Of a stretch of DNA of 64,000 nucleotides, positions 8,820-33,641 are shown in pieces. Each line of letters opens with the position of its first letter. Position 1 is the first letter of the stretch. A program made the position numbers and the translations under genes. The stretch is from an uncultured Bacilli bacterium (GTDB lineage Bacteria > Bacillota_I > Bacilli_A > RF39 > UBA660): NCBI GenBank assembly GCA_947624135.1, contig CANQIV010000001.1, positions 5,331-69,330 on the forward strand, read 5' to 3'. The notes below the pieces were generated by a model. That model made no database searches, was not told where the DNA came from, and was given only the letters and a program-made list of their open reading frames with translations.

Positions 8820-8848
8820 TTGACAAGTTCAATAATCTTTTTATATAT
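8820..8848 (+). promoter_or_regulatory. sigma-A-like promoter upstream of ABC transporter gene
   Basis: TTGACA, 17 bp spacer, TATATA. Confidence 0.35.
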
Positions 8849-8913
8849 TTGAATATAAAATTATTTTAATTTTTAATTTAAAGTAGTATAATTATATAGT
8901 TAAGGAGGAAACT

Positions 8914-11331: not shown

Positions 11332-11356
11332 AGTACTTGTAATAGTACTTTTTTTA
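11331..11356 (+). terminator. rho-independent terminator after ABC transporter gene
   Basis: AAGTACT-TGTAAT-AGTACTT hairpin followed by T run. Confidence 0.6.
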
Positions 11357-11392
11357 ATATATAATTATTATAGAAACGAAAGTAGGAATAAC

Positions 11393-12361: not shown

Positions 12362-12385
12362 TATAACTAATTTTGGAGGAGTAAC

Positions 12386-13777: not shown

Positions 13778-13863
13778 TATTTGTTAGACAAAATTTTTAA
13801 TATACGATATAATTAAGTTAGTTTAAGTATATAAAACTAAATAAAAGATAAGGAAGTGAATAA

Positions 13864-14121
13864 ATGACTAAAACAATAGGTAAGGTAATAGATGTTTATA
13901 TTCCAGAACAATATAAAAATGGCGGATTATTAGATGTTATGGATAGGACTAATATTGGTTTTAAAGTAATGGTTAATAATGATATAAAAGAAATTATAGT
14001 AGAAGCAAATGAATTAAATGCAAAAATAATGAAAAATGATTTAGTTTTAATTATAGAGCAAGATATATCAGGTAAACATTTTATCGATATTGAAATTTAT
14101 GAGGGTGATGGTAATGAATAA
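13864..14121 (+). CDS. hypothetical small protein (85 aa), first gene of helicase operon
   Basis: Good RBS AAGGAAG; stop overlaps helicase start. Confidence 0.4.
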   Translation: MTKTIGKVIDVYIPEQYKNGGLLDVMDRTNIGFKVMVNNDIKEIIVEANELNAKIMKNDLVLIIEQDISGKHFIDIEIYEGDGNE

Positions 14122-16720: not shown

Positions 16721-16721
16721 T

Positions 16722-17048
16722 ATGTTTTTAGAAAAGTATTTAAATTCTACATATTTAGATTTAGTTTATAGCAATTATGAAGAAAACTATATAAATTTAT
16801 TAGATGAAGATAATTTTAATAAAATTTATATGTTATTAAAAAATAATAATTTCTATTTCATTGAAGATATTATTTTAAATTATTTAGAATTATTTGAAAT
16901 TGAAGAAAAATATGTGGGACTTGCTATTTCAAGTGTTAAAAAAATTTTAGGAAATGATTTTGTTAAGAAAATTGGTCAAAATTTACAATTAATTGATAAA
17001 GTTATTGAACTTGCAATAGGTTATAGTGATGCGGATAATAAAATATAA
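16722..17048 (+). CDS. hypothetical protein (109 aa), third gene of helicase operon
   Basis: start overlaps helicase stop region; RBS AAAGGTGA. Confidence 0.4.
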   Translation: MFLEKYLNSTYLDLVYSNYEENYINLLDEDNFNKIYMLLKNNNFYFIEDIILNYLELFEIEEKYVGLAISSVKKILGNDFVKKIGQNLQLIDKVIELAIGYSDADNKI

Positions 17049-17055
17049 TTAAAAA

Positions 17056-17098
17056 AACGGAAATTAAAACTTTTTATAAAAGATTTGTTCCGTTTTTT
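17056..17098. terminator. bidirectional terminator between helicase operon and tsaC
   Basis: AACGGAA ... TTCCGTT stem with T run on plus and A run before. Confidence 0.4.
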
Positions 17099-17099
17099 A

Positions 17100-17684
17100 T
17101 TATATATAATCTTTAAATTCTTTTATTAATTTTTTAGAAATAGTTCCTTCTCTTAAAATAATTATTTTATTATTTTCAATTTTGATAAGAGTAGATGGAA
17201 TAGTATTAAGTTTTCCTTTATCATAAATATAATCAATACTATCTTTTAAGTCATTATCCAATTCATTTAAACTACTTATAACATCATTTCCTGATATATT
17301 AGCGCTAGTAGCAACAATTGGTATATTTAATTCTGTTAATAATTCATATAAAAATTTATCATTTGGTATTCTAATTGCAACATAAGAGTTTGGTGATATA
17401 TATTTACTTATTTTGTCATTTTTAGGTAACAATATACTTAATTTACCTGGTGTATATTTATCTATTATTGTATTTTCTAAATTAGTTATATTAGTAACAT
17501 ACTTTTTTAACATTTCTTTATTACTAACTAAAATAGGCATACCTTTATTTAAATTTCTTTTTTTTATTTGAAATATTTTTTTTACCACCTCATCTTTTGT
17601 AGCATCCCCAACTATACCATAAGTAGTATCAGTAGGTATTATAGCTATTTTTCCATTTTTTAATATATTAATTAATTCTTCCAT
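17100..17684 (-). CDS. tsaC: L-threonylcarbamoyladenylate synthase (YrdC/Sua5 family)
   Basis: YrdC-domain motifs IIPTDTTYGIVGDA, KKIFQIKKR, ATSANISG. Confidence 0.8.
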   Translation of the reverse strand: MEELINILKNGKIAIIPTDTTYGIVGDATKDEVVKKIFQIKKRNLNKGMPILVSNKEMLKKYVTNITNLENTIIDKYTPGKLSILLPKNDKISKYISPNSYVAIRIPNDKFLYELLTELNIPIVATSANISGNDVISSLNELDNDLKDSIDYIYDKGKLNTIPSTLIKIENNKIIILREGTISKKLIKEFKDYI

Positions 17685-17945
17685 ATTATCTCCTTTTAAA
17701 AAAATATATTTTTGAAATATAGTAATATTTTATCACAAAAATTATAAGAGTAGGGTATCTAAGTTTGAAAATAATTATGAAAGATTAAATAATTAATGCT
17801 CAAAAAGGTTGAAATAAAATATAATAAAGATGTATTTTATAAATAAATTTATATTTGATATAAGAAAATATTAAAATTCTAAATAGTATAGAAAAATGTG
17901 CTATAATATATTTATAATTATTATTTCAATAGATAGGAGGAAAAC

Positions 17946-18809
17946 ATGGTTTATTTAAAAAATTTTAAGTTATTAGATGAGGATCAAGAATACTTTATAA
18001 CGTATGAAGAACAGAGAAGAATATTTAATAATAATTATCCCTTGCATTTATTTTCAACTAAATCTTTTGAACACATTGATTTTGATAGAATTACAATTTT
18101 TTATGGTGGAAATGGTTCAGGGAAAACAACATTAATAAATATTATTTCACAAAAATTAAAAGCTTCAACAAAGACTCCAATTGATAAAGGTTCATATTTT
18201 GATTTATATGTTAAACATTGCGATTATGAAATGTCTTTTGATCAACCAGTTGAAATAAAATTAATAACAAGTGATGATGTTTTTGATTATCTTTTAAATG
18301 TACGTTCAATAAATTCAAATGTTAATAGACAAAAAGAAAAATTAAGTAAAGAGTATTTAGATTATAAATTTAATAAAAATGTAAATTCATTCGATAATTA
18401 TTATGAATTAAAAACAAGTTATGAAACAAAAAGAAATTCAATGTCTAAATTTGTTAGAGAACGATTGGGAAATAACAATATTATTGAGTGGTCAAATGGT
18501 GAATCAGCTCTTATGTTTTGGGAAAGAGAAATACAAGAAGATGCTATTTACATTTTAGATGAACCAGAAAATAGTTTATCTGCAGAAAATCAATTAAAAT
18601 TAAAAAAATTTATAGAAGATTCTGCTAGATTTTATAATTGTCAATTTATAATTTCAACTCATTCTCCATTTTTACTAAAACTTATAGATGCTAAAATTTA
18701 TGATTTAGATGAAATTCCTGTGACTACTAAAAAATGGACAGAGCTACCTAATGTTTTAGCATATTATAATTTTTTTAAAGAATATGAAAATGAATTTAAT
18801 AAAAAATAG
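17946..18809 (+). CDS. ABC/AAA_21-like ATPase, uncharacterised (island cargo)
   Basis: Walker A GGNGSGKTTL, Walker B IYILDEPE, downstream ISTHSP (H-loop like); 287 aa. Confidence 0.7.
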   Translation: MVYLKNFKLLDEDQEYFITYEEQRRIFNNNYPLHLFSTKSFEHIDFDRITIFYGGNGSGKTTLINIISQKLKASTKTPIDKGSYFDLYVKHCDYEMSFDQPVEIKLITSDDVFDYLLNVRSINSNVNRQKEKLSKEYLDYKFNKNVNSFDNYYELKTSYETKRNSMSKFVRERLGNNNIIEWSNGESALMFWEREIQEDAIYILDEPENSLSAENQLKLKKFIEDSARFYNCQFIISTHSPFLLKLIDAKIYDLDEIPVTTKKWTELPNVLAYYNFFKEYENEFNKK

Positions 18810-18940
18810 ATAATATAAAATTTTATATTTAAATTTATAAAGTTCTAATATATTCATCAGGTCGATAAAATAGTTTTAAATAAAAATAGCTATACTTTTA
18901 TTGATACTTTAGAAAAATAAATGTAGTTTACTTAAGGAAA

Positions 18941-19162
18941 ATGTCTGCAAGAAACTTACGATATATATATAAATTTGTTAGTGAATTTGATAATGATGAA
19001 TTTTTGCAAGGAGTCCTTGCAAAATTACCTTGTAATCATAATCAAGTATTATTAGATGAAAATAAAGTAAATGCAGAATTAGCTTTATTTGATAAAAAAT
19101 ATAAATTTCATGATATAATTTTATTAGTTGAAATACTTGGAGGTAATTATGTATTCTATTGA
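18941..19162 (+). CDS. hypothetical small protein (73 aa)
   Basis: RBS AAGGAAA; 3' end overlaps next ORF. Confidence 0.35.
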   Translation: MSARNLRYIYKFVSEFDNDEFLQGVLAKLPCNHNQVLLDENKVNAELALFDKKYKFHDIILLVEILGGNYVFY

Positions 19163-20150
19163 AGAATTAGCAAATTATATTTCACTAGATGAAATCCCAA
19201 ATGCTTGGAATAATTGTTTTGAAGAAATAAAAAAATCATATAATTATGATTGGTTGAAAAAATATTACTTTGATTTAATTTTAAATTATTATGAACTTGA
19301 TGATAATTTTAAAGAAAGATTTATTGATCAATTAAATTTACTAAATAGTGATAATAAACTTAATCTTATATGCTATATAATGTATTATATTTTATTTATA
19401 GCAGATGACAAGAATTATTATAATGTATGGTCTTGGAAATCAACGTTGAATATATTTAAAAATAATGGTAGTTATATGATTCCTGTTGTAGCGTTATTAT
19501 GTGGTTACGAATTTCATATAAAGAATATGAAATATAGAAATTTTGATAATGAACAAATTGTATTGCAAAAATATAATATTAAATTAGTTTGCACGAATGA
19601 CAAAATAAAGTATGGTATAGATGGAATTAGATTTAGTCAAATGATGTGGGGATCATACTTTATGAAAGGTAATTTGATTCAAATAGGAAGATTACAATAT
19701 GAAATCGTTGTTGAAAATTTTGATAAATTAGATAAATACTTTGAAGAAAAACATAAATATATTTATATTCACATACCAAAAGGTAAAGATTTGAATGAAA
19801 AAGATGTTAATGAATCATTATGTTTGGCAGATAAATATATAAAAAAATATTATCCTGAATTAAAAAATGAAAAACTATCATATTATACAAAGACTTGGTT
19901 ATTGAGTCCTGAAATAAAAGAAATATTATCTAATGATAGTAATATAATAAAATTTCAAAATAAATTTAATATTATAGAATATGAAGAAAATATTAATGAT
20001 TTTTTGAATTTTGTATTTGATGTAGTTATAGATAAAGTAGAATATAATGATTTACCTGAAAAAACAACTTTACAAAAAGAACTAAAAAGAAAACTTTTAA
20101 ATAATGAAAAATTACATTTAGGATTAGGAATTATAAAAAATATACCTTAA
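19149..20150 (+). CDS. hypothetical protein (333 aa), no recognisable motif
   Basis: RBS GGAGG 7 nt upstream of ATG 19149; followed by strong terminator. Confidence 0.5.
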   Translation: MYSIEELANYISLDEIPNAWNNCFEEIKKSYNYDWLKKYYFDLILNYYELDDNFKERFIDQLNLLNSDNKLNLICYIMYYILFIADDKNYYNVWSWKSTLNIFKNNGSYMIPVVALLCGYEFHIKNMKYRNFDNEQIVLQKYNIKLVCTNDKIKYGIDGIRFSQMMWGSYFMKGNLIQIGRLQYEIVVENFDKLDKYFEEKHKYIYIHIPKGKDLNEKDVNESLCLADKYIKKYYPELKNEKLSYYTKTWLLSPEIKEILSNDSNIIKFQNKFNIIEYEENINDFLNFVFDVVIDKVEYNDLPEKTTLQKELKRKLLNNEKLHLGLGIIKNIP

Positions 20151-20155
20151 CAAAG

Positions 20156-20196
20156 GCACTCTAATTGACTATGTCAATTTGCAAGTGCGTTTTTAT
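20156..20196 (+). terminator. rho-independent terminator after 19149..20150
   Basis: GCACT-CTAATTGAC-TAT-GTCAATT-TGCA-AGTGC nested hairpin followed by GTTTTTATTTT. Confidence 0.6.
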
Positions 20197-20214
20197 TTTG
20201 ACAAAATAAATTTT

Positions 20215-20245
20215 AAATAAAAGAAAACTCACACGAAAGTGTGAG
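20215..20245 (-). terminator. terminator for minus-strand XRE regulator gene
   Basis: CTCACAC-GAAA-GTGTGAG perfect hairpin; T-rich on minus strand after it. Confidence 0.5.
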
Positions 20246-20355
20246 TAATTATCATATTGAAGTGAGAACAAAGGTTATTTGAAATTCCTAATAGTAAAGT
20301 TGATAAACAACTAATCATCGAAATAATAACACATTTTTAATTCTTGTCACATTTT

Positions 20356-20598
20356 TTATTCAAATAATTTATCCATTGTTACACATAAAACAACAGAAAT
20401 CTTATACAAAGTATCAACAGAGCAACCAACAGCTCCTTTTTTATATTCGATTCTTCTAATGAAATCATAAGATTTCCCAACATCAACAGCTAATTGTTCT
20501 TGAGTAATACCAGCAATTTTTCTATATTTCCTAATATTCTCTGATACTTTTGACATAATATTATCTTCAAATTTTAAATCTCTTTTAAAAGTAGTCAT
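20356..20598 (-). CDS. XRE-family helix-turn-helix transcriptional regulator
   Basis: HTH_3-like ITQEQLAVDVGKSYDFIRRIEYKK; start chosen at Met27 of the track ORF, preceded by AGGGTG RBS. Confidence 0.75.
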   Translation of the reverse strand: MTTFKRDLKFEDNIMSKVSENIRKYRKIAGITQEQLAVDVGKSYDFIRRIEYKKGAVGCSVDTLYKISVVLCVTMDKLFE

Positions 20599-20654
20599 AC
20601 TATCACCCTTAATAATATTCTCTAATAAAAGGAATTTTATGTCCGGGAACAGAA

Positions 20655-20698
20655 AAGTCCTGTATGGTATTGTCAAGTCCTGTTTTTTGATATATAAT
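20655..20698 (+). promoter_or_regulatory. divergent promoter/operator region
   Basis: direct repeats AAGTCCTGT at 20655 and 20675 overlapping a TTGTCA-17-TATAAT promoter facing the zinc-ribbon gene. Confidence 0.35.
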
Positions 20699-20748
20699 TA
20701 TATGTAGACAATAATTCTTGTTTAAAGTTGTAAGGAGTGTGGAGTAAC

Positions 20749-21555
20749 ATGGCAATTATTAAATGTCCAAAATGCAACGAAGATGTTTCTGATAAATCAA
20801 CTAAATGTGTTCATTGTGGTCAGGTTTTAATTGAAGAACCAAAGCTATTTTGCGAAGAATGTGGAAATGAAATAAAAAAAAGTGATAAGGTATGCAGTAA
20901 ATGTGGTTGTCCAGTAGATAAAAAGCATGAACCGCAACAAGTTGAAGTTACAAAAGTAAAATTGGGTGGAGGAATATCTAAGAAAACAATTATTATAGGA
21001 ATTGTTTCTATTCTAGTTATTGTTGGAATTATCTTTGCAGTAATAACTATTAATAAGAAGAATGAAGAAAGAAAAGCAAGAGAATTAAGCGAACAATATA
21101 AAGAAAATTTAAGTACTATAACATACAAAATGTTAAATGGAGCTGCACAAGCTGAAGATTGTGGCAACAAAATCAAAAAAGTATGGTCTAACACAATTTG
21201 GGAAGATGATGATCCAGAAACAGATAAATATACTAAAAAGAATGGTGTATTTAATGATGATTTCAATGATTCTTTATCAACTTTATTTGCAGATCCAGAT
21301 TTTATTAAAATTACTGATGGTGTTGAACAAAATAAAACTGAAGTTAATAAGTTAATGAAAGATATGAAAAACCCGCCAGAAGAATGGACAGATGCTTATA
21401 GAGATTTAAAAGATTATTATGATGACTATTTAACTCTTACTAATTTATGCACAAATCCAAGTGGTAGTTTAACTACATATTCTTCTAATTTTAGTAATGC
21501 AGATACTGATACAGTTAATGGATACAGCAAAATGAAGTCATATTTAGATTACTAA
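20749..21555 (+). CDS. double zinc-ribbon membrane protein, hypothetical
   Basis: CPKCN..CVHCG and CEECG..CSKCGC ribbons, one TM helix, acidic extracellular domain. Confidence 0.5.
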   Translation: MAIIKCPKCNEDVSDKSTKCVHCGQVLIEEPKLFCEECGNEIKKSDKVCSKCGCPVDKKHEPQQVEVTKVKLGGGISKKTIIIGIVSILVIVGIIFAVITINKKNEERKARELSEQYKENLSTITYKMLNGAAQAEDCGNKIKKVWSNTIWEDDDPETDKYTKKNGVFNDDFNDSLSTLFADPDFIKITDGVEQNKTEVNKLMKDMKNPPEEWTDAYRDLKDYYDDYLTLTNLCTNPSGSLTTYSSNFSNADTDTVNGYSKMKSYLDY

Positions 21556-21593
21556 TAGAATTAGTAATCTTTTTATTTTAGAGGGAGCAAATT

Positions 21594-22799
21594 ATGAAAA
21601 AAATATATTCAATTTTAATTATTCTATTATGTTTTATGTGTTTAACAGGTTGTGGTGGTAAAAATGAAACCAAATCAAATGATACTAAGTATAAAGAAAC
21701 ATATAATCATTCTGATTTGATTGTTCATTCAGATTATGATAAAATCAATGATTTTTTAAACGGGCTATTCAATGAACTTGATTTTGATGGAAAAATGAGA
21801 TTAGCTAGTTCAAATGAAATAGAAGATTATTTTACATTTGCATATATTAATGAGAAAGCAGATACTGTTTTTACATTTTATTTTGGCAAAGATGAGTCAT
21901 TTATGTTTGTAAATATAATTTATGATAAAAATAATAATAATTCAGTAGGTTTATCTAAAGAAGTTATTAAATATTCAAAATTTGGATTTAGTACAGCTGA
22001 TTTATCTACTATAAGAAATATACTCACTTCTTCTTCAACTATAGATGATACTATTGTAGGAAATTATATTGTTTCAAATTTATCAAGTGGTAATATGACT
22101 ATTAAATCAAAAGATAAATATGGTAAAGAAGATAATGCTAAACAAGAAACACAATCATCAAATAATAATATCCAAAATAATACTCAAAGCAATAGTAATG
22201 AGAATAATACAAACAATATTACAAATAATAATACAAATAATAATACAAATAATAATACAAATAATAATACAAATTCAAACAATCAAACAAATACTCAATC
22301 AAATAATAATTCTAATACACAACAAAATAATCAACAACAAACACAACCTGAAAATAATAATCATTCAGTTAGTGTAAGTAAACAAAATGCATTAAAATCA
22401 GCTAAATCATATCTAAATATTTCTGCATTTTCAAAAAAAAGATTAATAGAACAATTAGAATATGAAAAGTATTCTACTGAAGATGCAACTTATGCTGTTG
22501 ATAATTGTGGTGCTAATTGGAATGAACAAGCATTAAAATCAGCTAAATCATATCTAAATATTTCTGCATTTTCTTATAGTGGTTTGAAAAAGCAATTAGA
22601 ATATGAAGGTTTTACTAGTGAACAAGCAAGTTATGGTGTAAATAATTGTGGTGCTAATTGGAATGAACAAGCAATTAAGTCAGCAAAATCATATTTAAGT
22701 TTTTCATCTTTTTCACATGATGGATTAGTTCAACAACTAGAGTATGAGGGATTTACTCATGAACAAGCTGAATATGGGGTTACTCAAAATGGATTATAA
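21594..22799 (+). CDS. lipoprotein with N/Q-rich linker and three Ltp-like (superinfection-exclusion lipoprotein family) C-terminal repeats
   Basis: Lipobox LTGC; 3 x ~48-aa repeat (A/N)LKSAKSYL..S.FS...L..QLEYE.(F/Y)..E.A.Y(A/G)V.NCGANWNEQA resembling the phage Ltp repeat family. Confidence 0.6.
   Translation: MKKIYSILIILLCFMCLTGCGGKNETKSNDTKYKETYNHSDLIVHSDYDKINDFLNGLFNELDFDGKMRLASSNEIEDYFTFAYINEKADTVFTFYFGKDESFMFVNIIYDKNNNNSVGLSKEVIKYSKFGFSTADLSTIRNILTSSSTIDDTIVGNYIVSNLSSGNMTIKSKDKYGKEDNAKQETQSSNNNIQNNTQSNSNENNTNNITNNNTNNNTNNNTNNNTNSNNQTNTQSNNNSNTQQNNQQQTQPENNNHSVSVSKQNALKSAKSYLNISAFSKKRLIEQLEYEKYSTEDATYAVDNCGANWNEQALKSAKSYLNISAFSYSGLKKQLEYEGFTSEQASYGVNNCGANWNEQAIKSAKSYLSFSSFSHDGLVQQLEYEGFTHEQAEYGVTQNGL
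22225..22275 (+). repeat. 12-bp tandem repeat (aataatacaaat) x ~4 inside lipoprotein gene
   Basis: direct reading; encodes NNTN low-complexity linker. Confidence 0.8.
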
Positions 22800-22882
22800 A
22801 AATAACGATGACTTATCTTTCTAAGTCATCATATTGGTGAAATAAAGTAAATGTTGGAAAAATTTAAGAGAAAATACAAGTT

Positions 22883-22905
22883 ATACAATTAATTTGTATT
22901 TTTTT
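22883..22905 (+). terminator. rho-independent terminator downstream of Ltp-like gene
   Basis: ATACAA-TTAAT-TTGTAT hairpin followed by T7 run; an additional 9-bp perfect hairpin GATGACTTA/TAAGTCATC at 22807-22830 lacks a T run. Confidence 0.5.
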
Positions 22906-23007
22906 ATATTCTTTTTGATAAGAAATAATTTGTTTTATAATTATGTTTTAAACTAAAAGTACTATTATCTATTTCATATTGTAAATTATATTTTAAATTG
23001 TTATCTG

Positions 23008-23277
23008 CTACTTGCTTGGCTTGATTTTAAAACATGTAATAAATTTTTCTAAATTTAGTTTTTTATAGGTAGATTCACATGTTTTAAATTTATAATATAT
23101 TTTTTCAGTAATTTTAATATTGTTTGCTTTCGTAGTAAGTAATTGAGTAATATTTTCCAGTCTATCTAAAGAATAAGCATGAGGTCTGGAGGTTCTAAAT
23201 TTCGCATATTTATTTGATATATGACCTTCCAATTGTTTACTTACAATATTAATCATAATAAAATCTTTTATTACCAC
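23008..23277 (-). pseudogene. orphan 89-aa ORF, possible remnant of a mobile-element gene
   Basis: no RBS or recognisable domain; located immediately outside the left att-like repeat. Confidence 0.2.
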
Positions 23278-23334
23278 AAAAAAATATCAACTTTATTTAG
23301 AAATTGATACTTTTCTATATTAAGTTCAAACTAC

Positions 23335-23364
23335 AAAAGTTCGAACAGATTTCCTAATGGAGCG
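23335..23364 (+). repeat. left att-like direct repeat (copy of tRNA-Gly 3' end region)
   Basis: aaaagttcgaacagatt...aatggagcg matches 33360-33389 at 26/30 positions; preceded by inverted repeat TATCAA...TTGATA. Confidence 0.6.
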
Positions 23365-23509
23365 ATTGTGGAAGATATCTACAACTTTTGCTCATAAACA
23401 ATTTGATATATAAAATATCAATCTTTAATAATATTCTAACACAAATTGCCTAGAATAGCTCGGAAAATTTGCTAATTTGTGGTAAAATATTTTATGGATG
23501 TGAATATTT

Positions 23510-25285
23510 ATGAAATTAAAATCTATAAAAATTGAAAATTTTAAATCTTTTGGAAATGATAATAACTTGTTGATTTTAGAAGATATAAATACGATAATTG
23601 GTAAAAATGAATCTGGTAAAAGTAATCTTATTGAATGTTTAAGCAAAATTAATTTATCTGGAATAGATGATCGTGACTTTTTTCTTAATATAAATAAATA
23701 TACGAAGTTAAAGCCAAAGATAGGAATTGTTTTAATACCATCAGAAGAAGAAAAAAATAAACTAAAAGGAGAAACGCTATTAACAATTAATAATAGATTT
23801 GATATTGATATTGAGGGAAGTTTGACAGAATCAATAAAAAATAATACTATTTTTCAGAATAATAGAGATAAAATGAATGAATTAAATCAAAATGTAAGTA
23901 ATTTATTCAGTGATCAGGAACAACGTAAACATTTCAAGGACCTTATTGAAATGATTAATAATGCAGAAAATAAAATTTTTATTAATTATACATATATTGA
24001 TGGAATAATCAATAAAATAAACAAAAGTGAGGAGTTTTCAGAATTTCTAAGGTATTTACAAGATTGCATTTCATATTTAAATAGTTTAAAAAATTCTTTT
24101 CCAACTTTTATTGAAATAGATAATATAACTTTAAAATCCAAGTATACAAGAAAGAATTTAGTTGATGATAACGATTCTAAAATTATGCTTATTCATCTTT
24201 TAAATGCTATGGAAATGGATATGGATTATTTGATGAGGTATTGGGATTTAGATAACCAAGCTGATAAAGAAAATTATATTGAAGATTTTAATTATAAAAT
24301 ACAAGAATTAATTAGTAAATTTAATGATTTTTATTCACAAGAACGTGTTTATATGAAAGCATCTTTTGAAAACGATTCGTTAAATTTTGTTGTTAAAACA
24401 ACAAAAAAATATATGGATTTTGATGAAAGAAGTAATGGACTTAAATGGTATTTAAATATGTATATCCAACTTGTATCAAAAACAAAAAACTCTAATATTA
24501 ATAATTATGTAATTTTAATAGATGAACCAGGTGTTTATTTACATGTCAATGCACAGAAAGAAGTTTTAAAACTCTTTGAAGACCTTTCTAAGAAAAACAA
24601 TATGATAATCTATACAACTCACTCTCCGTTTATGATTTATGAAAATAAACTTTATAGGGTAAGATTAATTATAAAAGATGAAAATGGTAATAGCAATATT
24701 GGTAATAAGTATTATTCATTGCCACATAAAATGGGGTCTAAAACTGAAACAATTACACCTTTATTAACTGCCATTGGTATGAATATGAATTATAATATTT
24801 TATCTTTTAATAGCCAAGAGGTAAATATTATTACGGAAGGTATATCAGATTATAATTACATAAAAGGTTACTTTCTTTTAACAAAAGAAAAAATGCCTAA
24901 TATTATTCCATCAACAAGTGTGGATAATATACATAATATTGTCTCTATTTTGATTGGCTGGGGATGTAATTTTAAAATTATTATGGATCAAGATAATTCT
25001 GGTAGAGGACAATATAAAGTCTTAATTAATAAAGGATTGACTGATATTTCTAATATTTCTTTTGTGGATGGGCTAAATATTCCTGATAATAAAAAAACTA
25101 TAACTATTGAAGACATATTTTCAGAAAAAGATAAACAACAAATTGGAATAACAAATGAAGACTATAAAGAGGAAAAAGCATATTATTCATTAGAAACATT
25201 AAAAAGAATTGAAAACAAGGATTTTGAATATGATCAAGAAACTATGTGTAATTTTGCAAAAATAATTTTTCAATTATTTGATTAA
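23510..25285 (+). CDS. OLD-family ATP-dependent endonuclease (ABC ATPase + Toprim)
   Basis: N-terminal Walker A GKNESGKSNL, Walker B ILIDEPGVYLH, HSP motif; C-terminal Toprim IITEGISD. Confidence 0.75.
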   Translation: MKLKSIKIENFKSFGNDNNLLILEDINTIIGKNESGKSNLIECLSKINLSGIDDRDFFLNINKYTKLKPKIGIVLIPSEEEKNKLKGETLLTINNRFDIDIEGSLTESIKNNTIFQNNRDKMNELNQNVSNLFSDQEQRKHFKDLIEMINNAENKIFINYTYIDGIINKINKSEEFSEFLRYLQDCISYLNSLKNSFPTFIEIDNITLKSKYTRKNLVDDNDSKIMLIHLLNAMEMDMDYLMRYWDLDNQADKENYIEDFNYKIQELISKFNDFYSQERVYMKASFENDSLNFVVKTTKKYMDFDERSNGLKWYLNMYIQLVSKTKNSNINNYVILIDEPGVYLHVNAQKEVLKLFEDLSKKNNMIIYTTHSPFMIYENKLYRVRLIIKDENGNSNIGNKYYSLPHKMGSKTETITPLLTAIGMNMNYNILSFNSQEVNIITEGISDYNYIKGYFLLTKEKMPNIIPSTSVDNIHNIVSILIGWGCNFKIIMDQDNSGRGQYKVLINKGLTDISNISFVDGLNIPDNKKTITIEDIFSEKDKQQIGITNEDYKEEKAYYSLETLKRIENKDFEYDQETMCNFAKIIFQLFD

Positions 25286-25296
25286 GGAGGTGTATT

Positions 25297-27276
25297 ATGG
25301 CTTTTAAAAGTTATAGTTGGTCTATAGGAACGACAAGTTTTAGAACTAGTCAATTAAATTATAAAATTGAAAGGCAATTACAATTATTAAAGAAATTTTG
25401 GAATGACAACCCTAATTTGAATTGGGACAATGAAACTCAAGAAAAATATTATAATTATTTAAAAGAAAATAATTTTTTATATGGTGAGGCTAGGATTCCA
25501 GATAAGGATGCTAGAGAAAAGACATCAGGTTTAGTAGATATTGGTGTATTAACAAGTGATAGAAAATTAACTGAAGTAGGTTCTAACATTGAACAACTAT
25601 TATATAAAGTAATGAACAAAGATAATATCTTTATGATATCTGAAGATAGCTATAAATATTTATTACAATTTTTAAAACTACAAATTAATAATGCTAATGA
25701 AGGTATAAAAATAAAACCTTTTATTGCTCTTATTTACTTAATTGAAAAATTAGATTACTTATCTTATGATGAATTTACTTATTTGCTTCCACTTTGCAAA
25801 AATAAATATGATGTTAAGAAAATGGCTCAAACGATTAAAAATACTGTAAGAGTTGGGTTTCCTGTTGATGATATTATAACCGAAAAAATACTTGATATGA
25901 ATAATTATATTCAAGCATTATATGATTTTAGCAGAGATTATCCTGTAACCGAAGAAACATTTGAAAGAATAGGATTAAATAGAAAAAGTAAAGCATATGA
26001 TAGACCTTATAATGCAATTTATCATACTTTAGTTGATTTAGTGTTTCATTTAAAGCATAATAATCTTAATGAAAGGCTTCCAAAATATAAGGAATTGTTT
26101 GAAGAATGTAAAAAAATATCTGGTAATGCTAGAATGCTATGGCAAAACTATTTATTTATGGGTGTTAAAATTAATAAAATAGATGAAGAATTTGATAACA
26201 AATTTAAATCATTGGATATTAGTTTATCTAGAAATATTATTGATTTTAAAAAAGAATTTTTTTTAAAAATGCATTTATTTAAATGGAAAGTAAATTTAAG
26301 AGATTATTTTGATTTAAATAAGCGATACTTTTCATTAACAGATATAATAAGATTTGAAGATGAAAAGATAGAATTAGATATGTTGCCTAAATATTATTTT
26401 AAAGATATTATTGATGATTTATTAAATGAAAACTTACTTGATAATGAACAATATTTAAAACAATTTTATTCTGATATTCCACTAGAAAGTATTTCTGAAT
26501 TATATAAAATTGATATAACTAATATTGTTAATAACATTAATAATGACTTAGGAATAAACTTAACACCAGAAAATGTAAATTCTTATATTAAAGATGAAAA
26601 GCTTAAAAATTTTAATGACTTAATTGATCATAAATTTAAAAATGAAGATTTAATTAGAATATTAGAACAAATAAAAAATAGAAATGATGAAGAACTAAAT
26701 TCATATATAACAGATAACGCAGATATTCCAACCATTTTTGAATATATACTTGGTATAGCATGGTATAGAATTAGTGGCAAAAAAGGAAATATTTTAGATT
26801 TTATGAATTTAAGTTTAGATGCAGATTTTTTGCCTAAGACTCATGCTAGTGGAGGAATGGCTGATATAGTTTATAAATATGAAAATAATTCATACCCTAA
26901 ACATGATTTATTAATAGAAGCAACTTTATCTGAATCAACTGGACAAAGAGTTATGGAAATGGAGCCTGTATCTAGACATCTTGGTGAAAATATAAAGCTT
27001 ACAAATAATTTAAATGATTATGCTTTATTCGTTGCTCCTAATTTGGAAGAAAGAATAATATTGGATTTTAGAAACATGAAAACAAGATTCTATCCAAAAG
27101 GTAATGGTGAGTTTATAGAAGGATTAAAAATTATACCAATCGACATAAACATATTAATGAAAATATTACAAAACAATATAAATTATAATGAAATATACAA
27201 TTGGTTTGATAAAGCATTTAAATCTACTATTCCAGATCCACTTTGGTATAGAGAAGAAATTTTAAAAAATATATAA
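25297..27276 (+). CDS. candidate type IIS restriction endonuclease (partner of tandem MTase)
   Basis: 659 aa, no NTP-binding motif; C-terminal block (YR.SGKKG ... GGMADIVY ... HDLLIEAT) has FokI-like cleavage-domain layout (PD...(D/E)x(K/T)); context with double-domain MTase. Confidence 0.4.
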   Translation: MAFKSYSWSIGTTSFRTSQLNYKIERQLQLLKKFWNDNPNLNWDNETQEKYYNYLKENNFLYGEARIPDKDAREKTSGLVDIGVLTSDRKLTEVGSNIEQLLYKVMNKDNIFMISEDSYKYLLQFLKLQINNANEGIKIKPFIALIYLIEKLDYLSYDEFTYLLPLCKNKYDVKKMAQTIKNTVRVGFPVDDIITEKILDMNNYIQALYDFSRDYPVTEETFERIGLNRKSKAYDRPYNAIYHTLVDLVFHLKHNNLNERLPKYKELFEECKKISGNARMLWQNYLFMGVKINKIDEEFDNKFKSLDISLSRNIIDFKKEFFLKMHLFKWKVNLRDYFDLNKRYFSLTDIIRFEDEKIELDMLPKYYFKDIIDDLLNENLLDNEQYLKQFYSDIPLESISELYKIDITNIVNNINNDLGINLTPENVNSYIKDEKLKNFNDLIDHKFKNEDLIRILEQIKNRNDEELNSYITDNADIPTIFEYILGIAWYRISGKKGNILDFMNLSLDADFLPKTHASGGMADIVYKYENNSYPKHDLLIEATLSESTGQRVMEMEPVSRHLGENIKLTNNLNDYALFVAPNLEERIILDFRNMKTRFYPKGNGEFIEGLKIIPIDINILMKILQNNINYNEIYNWFDKAFKSTIPDPLWYREEILKNI

Positions 27277-27277
27277 A

Positions 27278-27307
27278 AGATAGGTGTTGAGTATCTATCT
27301 TTTTTTT
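27278..27307 (+). terminator. rho-independent terminator after candidate REase gene
   Basis: AGATAG-loop-CTATCT hairpin followed by T8. Confidence 0.5.
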
Positions 27308-27362
27308 GATATAATGTTATTAGAAAATACGATGCCGAAAATGGAAATGGAGATGTAAAAAT

Positions 27363-29330
27363 ATGAAAACTATTTCAATTAATAATAGAAGATATATAGG
27401 TAGTAAAGCAAGAATGATTGATTTCATTAATGAAACTATAAAAAAAGAAAAAATTGAGTTTTCTTCATTTTTAGATTTATTCGGTGGAACGGGAATAGTT
27501 GGAAATTTTTTTAATGACCAAAAAACAAAAATATATGTTAATGATTTGTTAAAATCTAATTACTTATCATATTTAGCATGGTTTGGAAATGAAAAAATAG
27601 ATAAAAACAAAATAAAGATTTTTATAAATAAATATAATTCTCTTTCTAATTTAGAAGAAAATTATTTTTCAATTAATTTTAGTGATACTTATTTTAGTAA
27701 AGATAATTGTAAAAAAATTGGTTATATAAGAGAAGATATTGAAGCAAATTATCTTTCCAATAATTTAAATACTAGAGAAAGAGCTATTCTTATAACATCT
27801 TTATTATATGCTATGGATAAAATTGCAAATACAGTTGGGCATTATGATGCATATAGAAAAAATGGAAATTTAGATAAAAAATTAGAATTGTGTATGCTTG
27901 ATTTAAAATCCAACATTAATAATAAAAATAATAAAGTCTTTAATGAAGACTCTAATGAACTTGTAAAAAGTATAAAAGCAGATGTTGTTTATATTGATCC
28001 CCCATATAATTCAAGACAATATTCTGATGCATATCATTTATTAGAAAATGTTGCAATGTGGGAAAAAAATGAAGTTCATGGTGTTGCAAAAAAAATGGAA
28101 AGAAATGGAATTAAAAGTAAATATTGCTCTGTGTCAGCTCCTCTTGCTTTTAAAGATTTAATTGATAACATAGATGCTAAATACATAATTGTTTCATATA
28201 ACAATATGGGAACAAAAGGTGCAGGAAGGTCACAAGCTAAAATAAGTGATGATGATATAATAAATACTTTAAGATTGAAAGGAAAAGTAAAAGTATATGA
28301 AACTGATTTTAATCAGTTTAACACAGGAAAAACCCATATTGACAATCATAAAGAAAGATTATTTATATGTAAAGTTGGAAAAAGCACAAAGAAAAAAACT
28401 AGACATATAGAACCGATTATTGATAAAGTAAAATCTCCATTAAATTATACGGGTGGGAAATATAAATTATTAAATCAAATAATACCTATATTCCCTAATA
28501 ATCTAGACTTATTTGTAGATTTATTCTCTGGTGGATCTAATGTTGGTGTTAATGTTAATGCTAAAAGAATAGTATGTGTAGATAAACAAGAAGAGATTAT
28601 TAGAGTTATGGAATTGTTTAAAAAATATGAAGATGGTTTTATTATAAGTTCTTTAGAAAAAATTATTGATAAATATAATTTAAGTAATTCTTTATTAAAT
28701 GGATATAAAGCATATAATTGTACTAGCGATAAGGGATTAGGAACATATAATAAATCAAAATATTTAGAATTGAGAAAAGATTATAATAATATGAGAGATA
28801 ATTCTACAGAAAAAGATTTATTATTTTTAACATTAGTAATTTATGGATTTAATAATCAAATTAGATTTAATTCTAATGGTGAATTTAATATGCCTGTCGG
28901 GAAAAGAGATTTTAATAATTCTTTAAGAAAAAATTTAAAAAATTTTATAACAAAACTGAAGTCAAAAAATATAGAATTTATTAATTCTGATTTTAGAGAA
29001 TTTGCAATTGAAACAACCAATAACACTTTAGTATATTGCGATCCACCTTATTTTTTAGGGACAGCAAGTTATAATGAAAATGGTGGATGGACAAAACAAG
29101 ATGAAATAGATTTATTAAATTATTTAGCTGTTTTAGATAGTAAAGGTGTAAAATTTGCATTATCAAATGTAATCGAACATAAGGGTAATAAAAATATTAT
29201 ACTTGAAGCTTGGATTAAAGAACATAAATATAATGTTCATATAATTGATTGTGATTATAATAATTCTAATTATCACAAACAACAAGGAAGTATTACGAAA
29301 ACAACAGAAGTCTTAATAACAAATTACTAA
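27363..29330 (+). CDS. tandem two-domain N6-adenine DNA methyltransferase (Dam/D12 class fused pair)
   Basis: two FxGxG motifs (FLDLFGGTG, FVDLFSGGS) and two DPPY motifs (YIDPPYNS, YCDPPYFL); 655 aa. Confidence 0.85.
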   Translation: MKTISINNRRYIGSKARMIDFINETIKKEKIEFSSFLDLFGGTGIVGNFFNDQKTKIYVNDLLKSNYLSYLAWFGNEKIDKNKIKIFINKYNSLSNLEENYFSINFSDTYFSKDNCKKIGYIREDIEANYLSNNLNTRERAILITSLLYAMDKIANTVGHYDAYRKNGNLDKKLELCMLDLKSNINNKNNKVFNEDSNELVKSIKADVVYIDPPYNSRQYSDAYHLLENVAMWEKNEVHGVAKKMERNGIKSKYCSVSAPLAFKDLIDNIDAKYIIVSYNNMGTKGAGRSQAKISDDDIINTLRLKGKVKVYETDFNQFNTGKTHIDNHKERLFICKVGKSTKKKTRHIEPIIDKVKSPLNYTGGKYKLLNQIIPIFPNNLDLFVDLFSGGSNVGVNVNAKRIVCVDKQEEIIRVMELFKKYEDGFIISSLEKIIDKYNLSNSLLNGYKAYNCTSDKGLGTYNKSKYLELRKDYNNMRDNSTEKDLLFLTLVIYGFNNQIRFNSNGEFNMPVGKRDFNNSLRKNLKNFITKLKSKNIEFINSDFREFAIETTNNTLVYCDPPYFLGTASYNENGGWTKQDEIDLLNYLAVLDSKGVKFALSNVIEHKGNKNIILEAWIKEHKYNVHIIDCDYNNSNYHKQQGSITKTTEVLITNY

Positions 29331-29339
29331 GATAATAAA

Positions 29340-29383
29340 AGATGATATAAGCATTTAAATTAATGCTCAATATCATCTTTTTC
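29340..29383. terminator. bidirectional terminator between MTase and relaxase genes
   Basis: AGATGATAT...ATATCATCT 9-bp stem with nested AGCATT/AATGCT hairpin, T run after; overlaps relaxase stop. Confidence 0.5.
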
Positions 29384-30739
29384 TATTGCATAATCTTTTA
29401 AATTATTTAATTTACTTGGATTAGAAAGCAAATTGAAATTATCTTTATCTAAAGCACCATGTTCATATAATTCTTTAGCAAATTCTTCATATCTTTTGTC
29501 TTTTTTAACAAAAATTTTATCCATTAAGAATTGAACTAATCGATAAATCATATCTTTAAAATGTTCAAGTGTTGACTTTAAAGAATGATTTTCTTCTTTT
29601 AATTCTTGAATTTCATTTTCTTTTTCTTTGATATTTTCGTTTAATTTATCAACTTCTTGGTTAAGTGATTCATTATTTTTTGTTAATAATTTTAATCTTT
29701 GTCGATTACTAATTAACTCATTACTAATTTCTTTTAAAGTAACGGATAACTCTTGAATGTTTTGATATTCAGCAATAGTTTTATCTATTAAATCTATAAA
29801 AACAATTGCTTTATCACGATCCTTAACATCTATAACTAACTGATTTTTAATAAGCCCTTTTGCTTTTAAGCTTTCAAGAATTTCTTTAATTTCAGAAATA
29901 TTATTAGATAATTTTTCTGTTTTTTCTTTAGCACTTTTTAAATTATTTTGATGTATTTCAATAGACTTTTTAATCTTTTGGTAGTTTTCCATTTCAGTTA
30001 TATGATAATCTCGATTTCTGCCTTTTAATTTAGCCTTTAATTGATAATTTACTTGATATTCTTTGTTAAAAGATTCCATACAACGCACTCTCATTTTATC
30101 TTGAATTTTTGTTAATGATTCTTTAGTAAAGACATCAGATTTTCCAACTTGTTTAGACATTCCATATTTATTTTTATATTTAACTGGAACACCAATTATA
30201 TGAAGATGTGGACTTGTTTCATCATAATGAATGATTGCACTTGCTATTTTAAAGTTAGGGACAACAGTTTCTAAATCGTTAACTTGTTCTTTAAATACAT
30301 TAGTCATTTTCTTTTTATAATCAATAACTTTTGTATTCCAAAATTCCATATCACCAAGCTCAATAATTATTTCACAAGCCAAATCTTTTTTAGAATTATT
30401 GCTAATATGAGTGAAGTAATCTTTTATTTTTCTATCATCGCGAGCTTGTTTGTTATTATATTCAAGTTTTGCTTCTTCAAACTCATCTATATATAATTTT
30501 TTAATATCATCAACTATCGAAAATGAACCTCTAATAACTTCAATATTTTCTCTATCATTATCATATTTTCTACAATTATGATTATCACATTTTGCTAATC
30601 CTGATGCACTTTGAATAGCACTATTACCCATAGAAGTAGAACCACTAACATTACTTTTACCACTTTTTCTAGAACTATTTTTCTTATTTTTATCATTACT
30701 TAAATGGAAAGAGTAACTTAAGGTTGCTATATAAATCAC
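29360..30739 (-). CDS. MobV/Pre-family relaxase (plasmid recombination enzyme)
   Basis: Mob_Pre motif III HYDETSPHLHIIGVP (HxDExxPHxH), upstream HN.R-like segment, C-terminal coiled coil. Confidence 0.8.
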   Translation of the reverse strand: MIYIATLSYSFHLSNDKNKKNSSRKSGKSNVSGSTSMGNSAIQSASGLAKCDNHNCRKYDNDRENIEVIRGSFSIVDDIKKLYIDEFEEAKLEYNNKQARDDRKIKDYFTHISNNSKKDLACEIIIELGDMEFWNTKVIDYKKKMTNVFKEQVNDLETVVPNFKIASAIIHYDETSPHLHIIGVPVKYKNKYGMSKQVGKSDVFTKESLTKIQDKMRVRCMESFNKEYQVNYQLKAKLKGRNRDYHITEMENYQKIKKSIEIHQNNLKSAKEKTEKLSNNISEIKEILESLKAKGLIKNQLVIDVKDRDKAIVFIDLIDKTIAEYQNIQELSVTLKEISNELISNRQRLKLLTKNNESLNQEVDKLNENIKEKENEIQELKEENHSLKSTLEHFKDMIYRLVQFLMDKIFVKKDKRYEEFAKELYEHGALDKDNFNLLSNPSKLNNLKDYAIEKDDIEH

Positions 30740-30780
30740 ATCTCCTTTCTTTGTTTGTTTTTAGAGTATATTTTGTCTTT

Positions 30781-30849
30781 GACAAAATTATTAACCCCCT
30801 AGGAATTTTGTCATACTAACAAAATACTGGGGGCTAAGGCTCGCCTTAG
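30781..30849. promoter_or_regulatory. putative oriT / mob promoter region
   Basis: GACAAAATT/AATTTTGTC 9-bp IR, CCCCC/GGGGG IR, CTAAGG-CTCG-CCTTAG IR, all in the 150-bp leader upstream of the relaxase gene. Confidence 0.4.
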
Positions 30850-30890
30850 AATCCGAAATTAACTATCGTTAATTTTATAAGTAGAAGAAA

Positions 30891-32825
<1,935 letters not shown>

Positions 32826-32924
32826 CTAAAATCATCTCCTTTTCTCATTTTAAATTCAAAAAAGAGAAGTAAAGGTACTACTATAAAATAATACTTTCAC
32901 TTCTCTAAACTACATTGTAAGACT

Positions 32925-32939
32925 CTTGGTAACTTGGTT
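32925..32939. promoter_or_regulatory. perfect inverted repeat GGTAAC-TTG-GTTACC upstream of recombinase gene
   Basis: direct reading; candidate operator. Confidence 0.25.
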
Positions 32940-33000
32940 ACCATCTATATTAATTATACAACATTTGTCGTAAAAAGTCCATTGTCTAGGAAGTGGTGTA

Positions 33001-33327
33001 TTACTTGATTTTATTGATATATTCTTCTAAATCTGATAATTCAATTTTATTTTTCAAATTTTTAATATAAATATCAGTAGAATAATTAAATGCAAGAAAT
33101 GTTATACCTTTGATAATAATTCTATGAGGTTCTACATAGTTAAGATTAGATTTATCAATTTTTCTAATACTGCCGTTAATGAAAGTAGGAGTCGTCTTAC
33201 AAAACTCACAAATAAACTCTAATCTTTGTTTTAAAGACTTTTCAAAGGGTATTTCTTGTTTAAGTATCTTAATCATAAACACCATCCTTCCTTTAGGATG
33301 ATTTCTTTGTAACAACAAAAAAACCAA
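33001..33327 (-). CDS. hypothetical protein between recombinase and tRNA (possible directionality factor)
   Basis: 108-aa ORF, no motif recognised. Confidence 0.3.
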   Translation of the reverse strand: MVFLLLQRNHPKGRMVFMIKILKQEIPFEKSLKQRLEFICEFCKTTPTFINGSIRKIDKSNLNYVEPHRIIIKGITFLAFNYSTDIYIKNLKNKIELSDLEEYINKIK

Positions 33328-33359
33328 TCTTTCGATTGATTTCTATATATCAATGTTCG

Positions 33360-33389
33360 AAAAGTTCGAACAGATTCGTCAATGGAGCG
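33360..33389 (+). repeat. right att-like direct repeat overlapping tRNA-Gly 3' end
   Basis: see 23335-23364; flanked by ATTGAT...ATCAAT inverted repeat and tandem GTTCGAA half-sites. Confidence 0.6.
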
Positions 33390-33456
33390 GGTGATGGGAA
33401 TCGGACCCACGTTATCAGCTTGGAAGGCTGGAGTTCTACCATTGAACTACACCCGC
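33383..33456 (-). tRNA. tRNA-Gly (anticodon UCC)
   Basis: cloverleaf folded by eye: acceptor GCGGGTG/CACCCGC, D-arm AGTTCAATGGTAGAACT, anticodon loop CUUCCAA, T-arm GTGGGTCCGATTCCCAT, encoded CCA. Confidence 0.85.
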
Positions 33457-33641
33457 GTTTTCTAAACAATTAACATTATACTATTAACAATCTATTAAGT
33501 CAATACTTTTTTTAAAATTATCTAATTATTAAAACAATATTACATCAATATTATATGCAAATATTAATAAATAATGAATTTAGTTATTAATATTTCTTTT
33601 TTTAAAAATTAAAATAATGTATAATATAAATAGGTGGTAGA

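Follow-up and report, generated by a model that had tools for sequence, protein, structure and literature searches.

A serine-recombinase mobilizable element, probably intact, at the CCA end of a tRNA-Gly gene in an uncultured Bacilli bacterium, next to a decayed sister element

Results

An element at the end of tRNA-Gly(UCC)

We analyzed a 64,000-nt stretch of contig CANQIV010000001.1 from an uncultured Bacilli bacterium (the window, G+C content ∼23%; all coordinates are positions in it). Positions 23358–33382 most probably form an intact integrative mobilizable element (IME) of a large, apparently undescribed family, inserted by a large serine recombinase (LSR) at the CCA end of a tRNA-Gly(UCC) gene, a reading to which we assign a probability of roughly 0.85. 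The element is 10,025 bp long, carries one copy of the core GCTCCA on each side, and holds six substantial open reading frames (ORFs) for an ATPase, an endonuclease, a methyltransferase, a Mob_Pre relaxase, the LSR, and a conserved 91-amino acid protein (Table 1). An integration module and a relaxase are thus present, and the six ORFs include no mating-pore or coupling-protein gene, as is characteristic of an IME. A first-pass annotation, made from the sequence letters, had placed an IME at the 3′ end of this tRNA gene, with an LSR as its sole recombinase, a MobV relaxase, and defence cargo. Pfam and PADLOC bear out this gene content, the interval contains no other recombinase ORF, and the placement is supported by the junctions described below. 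A decayed sister element of 3.1 kb (∼20262–23357), which lacks the 91-amino acid gene, the LSR, the transfer origin (oriT) and mob, adjoins the intact one, so that the locus reads tRNA-Gly, intact element, decayed element, displaced native terminator. Comparisons were made with fetched public loci (L005–L051); sister elements are represented by ∼45 loci from uncultured gut Bacilli.

Table 1. Features of the intact element, its tRNA target and the decayed neighbour, in window coordinates
Feature	Position	Strand	Basis
tRNA-Gly(UCC), integration target	33383-33456	-	ARAGORN; single tRNA in window
Recombinase-proximal (near) arm of intact element, TTGACGAATCTGTTCGAACTTTTCGAAC	33355-33382	-	present in all family loci
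Element-borne hairpin + U7	33316-33344	-	fold and comparison
Conserved 91-amino acid protein, directly upstream of LSR	33001-33276	-	present in every family locus
LSR, 644 amino acids, TTG start	30891-32825	-	Pfam
Conserved inverted-repeat-rich block, 87 bp, between LSR and mob genes	30769-30855	-	alignment, 14 family members
MobV-type relaxase, 459 amino acids	29360-30739	-	Pfam Mob_Pre
Fused double N6-adenine DNA methyltransferase	27363-29330	+	Pfam MethyltransfD12 (PF02086), two stretches; PADLOC MTase_II E=5e-205
AlwI-family restriction endonuclease	25297-27276	+	Pfam RE_AlwI (PF09491) E=7e-72, 243 bits; PADLOC REase_II
OLD/AriA-like ABC-type ATPase	23510-25285	+	Pfam AAA_15 E=2e-21; PADLOC Old E=2e-26, AriA E=3e-22
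Far-end module and far attachment arm, ...TTGATATTTTATATATCAA...GTTGTAGATATCTTCCACAATC	23364-23447	-	sequence comparison
Second core copy GCTCCA, junction of intact and decayed elements	23358-23363	-	junction comparison
Relic near end of other-subfamily element: arm, hairpin, leader, ∼10 codons of 91-amino acid gene	23227-23357	-	L014 match
Chimeric 89-amino acid ORF in decayed element	23008-23277	-	alignment
Body of decayed element	20267-23226	.	Pfam and alignment
Ltp-repeat lipoprotein, decayed element	21594-22799	+	Pfam
Zinc-ribbon protein, decayed element	20749-21555	+	Pfam
HTH regulator, decayed element	20356-20676	-	Pfam
Far arm of decayed element	20267-20320	-	aligned to L007 far arms
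Degenerate core CTCAC	20262-20266	-	alignment to L017 native distal flank
Native-type tRNA terminator, hairpin 20228-20245 + U-run	within 20219-20266	-	L017 alignment and fold

Backbone and cargo

The backbone order of 91-amino acid gene, LSR and Mob_Pre gene is kept in all family loci. The three window ORFs are full length relative to their homologues (640–647 residues for the LSR), and both cores are intact. The LSR contains a Resolvase domain (PF00239, E=7e-33, residues 10–156) and a Recombinase domain (PF07508, E=2e-17), and its translation carries the sequence YLRVSTEDQ, which we take to be the LSR catalytic motif with the serine nucleophile. The ∼300 C-terminal residues (∼330–644) have no match in Pfam or the PDB. 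The nearest NCBIfam models, XisF and CcrB, lie far under their cut-offs (CcrB 116.9 bits versus 900; CcrC 100 versus 900), and a plasmid collection held no LSR that is >30% identical to that of the window. Comparison with characterised recombinases, as proposed at the first pass, returned the catalytic domain of TP901-1 integrase in a PDB search (E=9e-20) and a TnpX fragment that matches only the N-terminal 90 residues (E=8e-5).

The relaxase matches Pfam Mob_Pre (PF01076, 50.9 bits versus a cut-off of 25.5, E=2e-13), and its translation contains HNCR and HYDETSPHLH, presumably the HxxR and HxDE..PHxH motifs by which MobV (Mob_Pre) proteins are defined. Its GTG start is confirmed by L017 and L018, which have ATG at the same position. 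The first-pass annotation had noted a leader rich in inverted repeats in front of this gene, and comparison of 14 family members supports it: in the conserved block between the LSR and mob genes, the first hairpin changes on both sides while pairing is kept, and CCTAGGGGGTTA is invariant. The spacer is conserved even where the LSRs are only 53–61% identical. With moderate confidence we regard the block as the putative oriT of the MobV relaxase.

The 91-amino acid protein has 3992 homologues, of which the best 120 listed are all ≥76% identical, and it is more conserved than the LSR (76–100% versus 61–98% identity among the homologues listed). It has no match in Pfam, NCBIfam or PADLOC, and an AlphaFold2 model from a 31-sequence alignment (mean pLDDT 51) is too poor to use. 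We infer that this protein may be a directionality or regulatory factor.

The cargo lies between mob and the far arm and varies among family members. In the window, the RE_AlwI endonuclease gene sits beside a methyltransferase gene with two methylase domains, which is the arrangement of an AlwI-type type IIS restriction-modification system. The PADLOC Old match covers residues 241–535 of the ATPase, and no separate match to a Toprim domain was obtained; the sequence makes this protein a candidate single-gene defence nuclease. L033 combines the window backbone at 96% identity with other cargo (DUF4379 and an OLD-like ATPase) in a 7.7-kb element. The cargo is modular and exchangeable.

The family moves between tRNA-Gly genes

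Public metagenomes hold thousands of full-length relatives of the LSR, and the LSR and the 91-amino acid protein each fall into thousands of clusters at 90% identity. According to a genome scan, the hosts are uncultured low-G+C Bacilli and Erysipelotrichaceae, represented by metagenome-assembled genomes from rabbit, goat, mouse and human gut, and all fetched loci have 20–30% G+C. Two contigs assigned to Muribaculaceae (L023 and L024, 26% G+C) carry a Bacilli-type element and are probably mis-binned.

Junctions could be set in nine elements. L006 and L007 contain the same LSR and have 8.9 kb in common at 99.6% identity, with different flanks: the L006 element lies between tRNA-Gly(CCC) and a plain terminator, and the L007 copy between two other family elements. 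From these sequences, we read the pair as a whole-element transposition. Near junctions occur at the tRNA-Gly genes for three isoacceptors, UCC (the window, L005, L012–L015, L029, L032, L033, L036 and L037), GCC (L016, L021, L022, L023, L028 and L031) and CCC (L006/L009, L030 and L034/L035). Backbones 96–98% identical to that of the window are found at UCC (window/L032, L033, L036 and L037) and GCC genes (L031; L022 at 97.5%), and backbones with 91–98% identity at CCC genes (L034/L035; decayed in L030), in chromosomal contexts that differ (addB, LtaS, ABC transporter). Because near-identical backbones sit at three isoacceptor genes in different contexts, the lineage has inserted recently and repeatedly. 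Insertion was at GCTCCA of tRNA-Gly or at sister-element junctions in every locus examined, and truncated tRNA 3′ ends of 12–25 nt are also targeted (L020, L050 and L051).

More distant LSRs (∼61% identical) are found at other RNA genes, namely at tRNA-Thr(GGU), ending in GCACCA (L019, 8138–8330), and at tmRNA, ending in CCACCA (L024, 7536–8040). The near arms of L019 and L024 are almost the same as in the window family, and the target ends in CACCA (discriminator A), not CTCCA, which hints that the discriminator lies in the crossover. We looked for the far junctions of these two elements and did not locate them.

Several loci show further arrangements. In L050 and L051, IMG/VR contigs classed as viral, only 12–17 nt of a tRNA-Gly 3′ end precede the near arm, perhaps reflecting insertion into a tRNA fragment carried by a prophage. 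In L034 (3749–3800) and L035 (960–1010), an ABC transporter operon separates the occupied tRNA-Gly(CCC) from a family far junction that has the same orientation and is located 3.3 kb upstream. In L027 (4788–11573), a different 6.8-kb mobilizable element (549-amino acid LSR, 428-amino acid Mob_Pre protein and HTH regulator) is nested inside the 91-amino acid gene of a 97–99% copy of the window backbone. L029, L036 and L037 match the window over the tRNA and 56 nt upstream of it, where the similarity of L029 ends.

The region downstream of tRNA-Gly is hypervariable. L041 and L042, from the same species, are 99.9% identical to window positions 7100–19120, then diverge and end in another far junction with an intact core; L047 reproduces the window arrangement. 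L048 (1–1919) and L049 keep the relic junction and the far-end module at 97% identity to 23001–23447. They carry a different, 358-amino acid cargo gene and an oriT-like core with no mob gene after it, and may represent a relaxase-less derivative. Between 19121 and 20218 the window has a gene with a GNAT_C domain where L041 has two other genes, and L041 also contains a 22-nt piece that resembles a tRNA-Gly anticodon arm beside the far junction of another element. The variable zone may thus extend beyond the two elements described here.

Some observations weigh against our reading of the window copy. The first pass had suggested searching for an empty site and for a circular form, and neither was found for this copy or species. 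Exact-protein look-ups with addB, tsaC, the zinc-ribbon protein and the 89-amino acid ORF led to contigs of the same species, which are broken off at the tRNA, within the element, or at 19120–20250; exact look-ups of the LSR, the Ltp protein, the zinc-ribbon ORF read from a GTG start, and an 82-amino acid ORF gave no match. When JGI metagenomes were scanned for the pattern tRNA end + NNNN + arm, four loci matched; each was occupied or bore a relic, and the predicted AGGA pre-insertion joint was present in none of them. A scan of IMG/VR for the near arm yielded two contigs, without a circular form. The window shows no conjugative helper element. The zinc ribbon of the LSR scores below threshold (PF13408, 18.5 bits versus a cut-off of 25.3), with the cysteines of CPKC...CNEC visible. 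The relaxase scores below the NCBIfam MobV threshold (36.7 bits versus a cut-off of 100) and has no PDB match, for which reason we regard it as a divergent MobV member. The nine attachment sites used in the symmetry analysis (see below) are mutually related and not independent. Insertion next to a resident element implies a reaction of an element site with a hybrid junction, and the array may have formed otherwise. The cargo differences of L048/L049, finally, are also compatible with homologous recombination between conserved modules.

An alternative that draws on several of these points is that the window copy is a fixed, immobile island in a recombination hotspot, and that strains differ through homologous recombination between the oriT/mob and far-end modules. 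The missing empty site and circle would fit, as would the visibly decayed neighbour, and L048 and L049, which are 97% identical through the far-end module, differ in cargo only, as cassette exchange predicts. However, the three backbone ORFs and both cores of the window copy are intact, an identical 91-amino acid protein is present on at least 38 contigs, and L006 and L007 indicate transposition of a whole element. Recent site-specific insertion is needed to explain backbones with 91–98% identity at three tRNA-Gly genes in samples of one study. We consider the fixed island improbable and favour the intact IME. Our confidence is high for its anatomy, including boundaries, target choice and the adjoining relic, and for mobility at the level of the family; it is moderate for the proposal that the present copy is still active.

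Attachment sites and the element boundary

The hexamer GCTCCA is the only sequence that is constant across all junctions compared. It is made up of the final two bases of the acceptor stem, the discriminator U, and the gene-encoded CCA, and at 33383–33388 it forms the last six bases of an intact tRNA-Gly gene. Read in the orientation of the LSR, the near junction is always ...[C/T]GCTCCA followed by TTGACGAATCTGTTCGAAC..., and the far junction is always ...GTTGTAGATATCT-N8-GCTCCA followed by the flank. The far-end module of the window is 80–88% identical to the far ends of L006, L007, L016, L017, L020, L021, L028 and L033. In five elements (L021, L016, L033, L015 and L028), the bases before and after GCTCCA differ between the two junctions of the same element, and strand exchange therefore takes place inside the hexamer. 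All nine reconstructed element sites have a peak of dyad symmetry at CT of G-CT-CCA, where 10–12 of 24 positions match (11–12 in 8/9 sites) compared with ∼6 at most other centres; summed over the sites, the CT centre scores 100 and the next-best 81. By eye, the inner half-site on both arms of the reconstructed sites reads C-N-ATTG-NN-GAA. The dyad symmetry indicates, with moderate confidence, that CT is the crossover dinucleotide.

The first-pass annotation had bounded the element by an imperfect 30-bp direct repeat, aaaagttcgaacagatt-NNNN-aatggagcg, with copies at 23335–23364 and 33360–33389 (26/30 identical). These copies are indeed there, and they are the only two matches to the 30-mer in the window, even when three mismatches are allowed; 100 dinucleotide-preserving shuffles contain none. 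The 17-mer part would be weak evidence by itself, because chance pairs of this length are common in DNA of 23% G+C (∼30 independent dispersed pairs of exact 17-mers in the window, nearly all pure A/T). The 30-mer is significant because of the additional 9/9 match in a G+C-rich segment and its location. As annotated, the last 7 nt of the minus-strand tRNA-Gly (cgctcca) fall inside the right copy, which the ARAGORN prediction bears out, and inverted repeats and GTTCGAA half-sites adjoin both copies.

This repeat could be the true attachment repeat, made of the tRNA end and its native 3′ flank, with an element that spans 23335–33389. An unoccupied tRNA-Gly(UCC)-addB flank would then begin TTAGGAAATCTGTTCGAAC and continue into ordinary chromosome. 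That the repeat is real, unique in the window, and abuts the tRNA speaks for such a model, as does L013, where tRNA-Gly(UCC) is followed by a similar sequence of ∼50 nt without an element, readable as native flank. The comparisons, however, make it very unlikely. The near arm, which supplies 23/30 nt of the right copy, does not differ between L006, L007 and L010, although the left flanks of these three are unrelated; the 23 nt beside the tRNA travel with the element and are therefore element sequence, not tRNA 3′ flank as had been annotated. In L006, L017, L020, L021 and L014, sister elements at unoccupied sites, a plain hairpin terminator forms the far flank and has only GCTCCA and 0–2 further bases (6–8 bp) in common with the near junction. 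The left copy, moreover, runs on for ∼130 bp and reaches the leader and start codon of a gene that belongs to an element: positions 23228–23364 match the near end of the L014 element, which is intact and of another subfamily, at 89% identity over 135–138 bp. The match takes in arm, hairpin, leader and ribosome-binding site and stops after the first ∼10 codons of the 91-amino acid gene.

The relic near end holds 21/30 nt of the left repeat copy. Since this copy is the homologous arm of a decayed element, the boundary of the intact IME lies at 23358 rather than at 23335, and the locus is a tandem array of two elements. On sequence comparison, the 30-bp repeat is a 9-bp core, CGCTCCATT, the stretch shared in the window, together with the homologous near arms of two different elements.

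At the other end of the decayed element, the far arm resembles that of yet another subtype, present twice in L007. The terminator hairpin beyond its degenerate core (−11.1 kcal/mol, z −5.0) closely resembles the native distal flank of L017, which identifies it, by sequence, as the native tRNA terminator, now displaced 13 kb from tRNA-Gly. The intact element brings a hairpin of its own next to the near arm (−9.8 kcal/mol, z −3.5; 0/200 shuffles as good), the stems of which differ in L005, L023 and L019 yet still pair; with moderate confidence, we regard it as a putative replacement terminator for the tRNA gene. An arm-like far flank, the pattern of an array, is present in the window, L007, L016, L015, L028 and L033, and in L007/L008, L010/L017 and L027 the near flank is the far arm of another element.

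The chimeric 89-amino acid ORF of the decayed element was considered as a homologue of the 91-amino acid protein and rejected: it has no BLASTP similarity and consists of ten relic codons joined to unrelated sequence. In L013 (2690–2836), tRNA-Gly(UCC), a solo near arm of ∼50 nt and a terminator follow one another with no element; the solo arm would be a minimal relic or else a scar left when an element was lost. Just upstream of the window tRNA-Gly lies a near-consensus promoter, TTGACT-17-TATAAT (11/12, 33475–33503, minus strand). The promoter scan of the window gave 105 matches versus 93 expected, which is uninformative at 23% G+C, and the tRNA promoter alone stands out.

Discussion

In the mechanism that we propose, the 3′ end of a tRNA-Gly gene and the element site, which consists of far arm, GCTCCA and near arm, are recombined by the LSR. 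The LSR would make 2-bp staggered cuts at CT and exchange partners, leaving the tRNA sequence unchanged, and the element-borne hairpin would then take over as the terminator behind tRNA-Gly. Upon excision, the circle joint is predicted to read CTTCCACAATCGCTCCATTGACGAATCTG (40-mer GATATCTTCCACAATCGCTCCATTGACGAATCTGTTCGAAC) and the chromosomal joint CCCATCACCCGCTCCATTAGGAAATCTG (40-mer GATTCCCATCACCCGCTCCATTAGGAAATCTGTTCGAAC). The MobV relaxase would nick the hairpin-rich oriT upstream of the mob gene, and a co-resident conjugative element would have to supply the mating pore, for which the element has no gene. That the element is a phage satellite or prophage remnant, and not conjugatively mobilized, is hardly credible. 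Two family near ends do lie on the viral-labelled IMG/VR contigs L050 and L051, and among the genes of the decayed element is one for an Ltp-type lipoprotein, a class that was first encountered in prophages. However, capsid, terminase, portal, primase and packaging genes are missing from the six ORFs and from sister elements, a Mob_Pre relaxase behind the conserved hairpin block is common to all members, and none of the LSRs in 50,697 phage records reaches 30% identity to that of the window.

The array raises the question of how an element would enter next to a resident one. A reaction of an element site with a hybrid junction is one that canonical phage serine integrases avoid; Ccr recombinases, for their part, are permissive. 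TnpX of Tn4451 needs no accessory factor to work in either direction (PMC5704250). By analogy with the permissive Ccr enzymes and the bidirectional TnpX, tandem insertion by the window LSR would be plausible.

A wider reading, which we offer as tentative and, with all its parts taken together, think possible but doubtful, is that the LSRs form an undescribed, very abundant serine-integrase clade whose crossover lies in the encoded discriminator/CCA end. One enzyme lineage would use the genes of all tRNA-Gly isoacceptors, even 3′ fragments of 12–25 nt, and sister lineages may have been retargeted to discriminator-A RNAs (tRNA-Thr and tmRNA) by a change of the central dinucleotide. The enzyme may accept hybrid junctions and build arrays, without the strict site-pair selectivity of phage serine integrases, and the 91-amino acid partner may represent a new factor that sets directionality or selects sites.

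Insertion at tRNA genes is regarded as a hallmark of tyrosine integrases. Among IMEs, serine recombinases have been described to integrate within genes and tyrosine integrases to use tRNA ends (PMC5704250; PMC4383910). The first-pass annotation had called a repeat mostly of 3′ flank, with an LSR as the only recombinase, an unusual combination. An LSR at a tRNA end does depart from the IME review (PMC5704250); the pairing of an LSR with a MobV relaxase is known from Tn4451/Tn4453 and from streptococcal IMEs (PMC5704250, PMC5357655). The literature that we searched contains no description of a serine-recombinase IME at tRNA-Gly; this search was limited, and the family may still be described.

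Tn4451 has GA-dinucleotide ends. Like the window family, Tn4451 and Tn4453 (C. perfringens and C. difficile) are small (∼6 kb), with a single LSR (TnpX), a Mob_Pre/MobV relaxase (TnpZ), an oriT upstream of mob, cargo, no mating-pore genes, and exchange at a short identical sequence (PMC5704250). Insertion of Tn4451 shows little specificity (PMC5704250), whereas the window family is specific for GCTCCA at tRNA-Gly ends. TnpX is only remotely related to the window LSR, and the conserved 91-amino acid gene and the tandem arrays are features of the window family, not of Tn4451. The element thus has neither a TnpX-type recombinase nor the low-specificity insertion of the Tn4451/Tn4453 family. Streptococcal and other Firmicutes IMEs with serine recombinases disrupt protein-coding genes (rumA; SNF2, traG and maff2 of integrative and conjugative elements) (PMC5704250), whereas members of the window family insert at a tRNA gene's end, leave the gene intact, and supply a putative terminator. 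The difference here is a serine-recombinase family that uses the tRNA CCA end and keeps the tRNA gene intact.

The staphylococcal cassette chromosomes (SCCmec/SCC) are inserted by CcrAB or CcrC at the 3′ end of rlmH/orfX, a gene that stays undisrupted, and a core copy bounds each cassette where several accrete in tandem. They differ from the window family in their protein-gene target, in mostly having two recombinases, in having no relaxase or oriT, and in their longer repeats, and the similarity of the recombinases is below family cut-offs. In the Dehalococcoides ssrA islands, a serine recombinase (DsiB, CcrB-like) targets the 3′ part of the tmRNA gene, and islands accrete in tandem downstream, some without integration modules, to give a hypervariable locus (PMC3146451). 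L024, a distant member of the window family, likewise lies at a tmRNA end. The ssrA islands differ in their 20-bp repeat, in insertion in the T-loop region of ssrA, and in a six-gene integration module that includes a second small serine recombinase and ParB- and RecF-like genes, with no relaxase (PMC3146451). By analogy, we consider these islands the closest earlier case of a small-RNA gene that is targeted by a serine recombinase and gathers islands in tandem. The window element has a single recombinase gene, which is not of the CcrB/CcrC type, and no second small recombinase. The accretion seen in SCC and ssrA islands is common to the window family only as an analogy. Tyrosine-integrase islands also preserve the tRNA 3′ end that they target and leave arrays and displaced fragments downstream (PMC4383910). 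Their recombinase chemistry is unrelated and their repeat is a long tRNA 3′ segment, whereas the repeat here is 6–9 bp, with exchange at the discriminator/CCA, and there is no tyrosine recombinase among the interval ORFs.

A long direct repeat on the tRNA side can therefore consist of a short core and the homologous end of a decayed neighbour. Programs that call island boundaries from such repeats would misplace the end by ∼20 bp and miss the tandem array. The family appears to be abundant in uncultured low-G+C gut Bacilli and, as judged from its cargo, may shuttle restriction-modification and OLD-like defence genes between species. Its short, near-universal tRNA-end target, with a specificity that apparently shifts with the discriminator, could be a starting point for studying the retargeting of serine integrases.

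Other features of the window

Two further repeat-containing genes were noted outside the array. A 1419-amino acid ORF (46096–50355), built of 3–4 tandem repeats of ∼819 bp, some of which are 100% identical, looks like a large repetitive surface-type protein. Positions 14090–16720 encode a helicase (ResIII domain) with four HA domains, which are encoded by tandem repeats of 222–225 bp.

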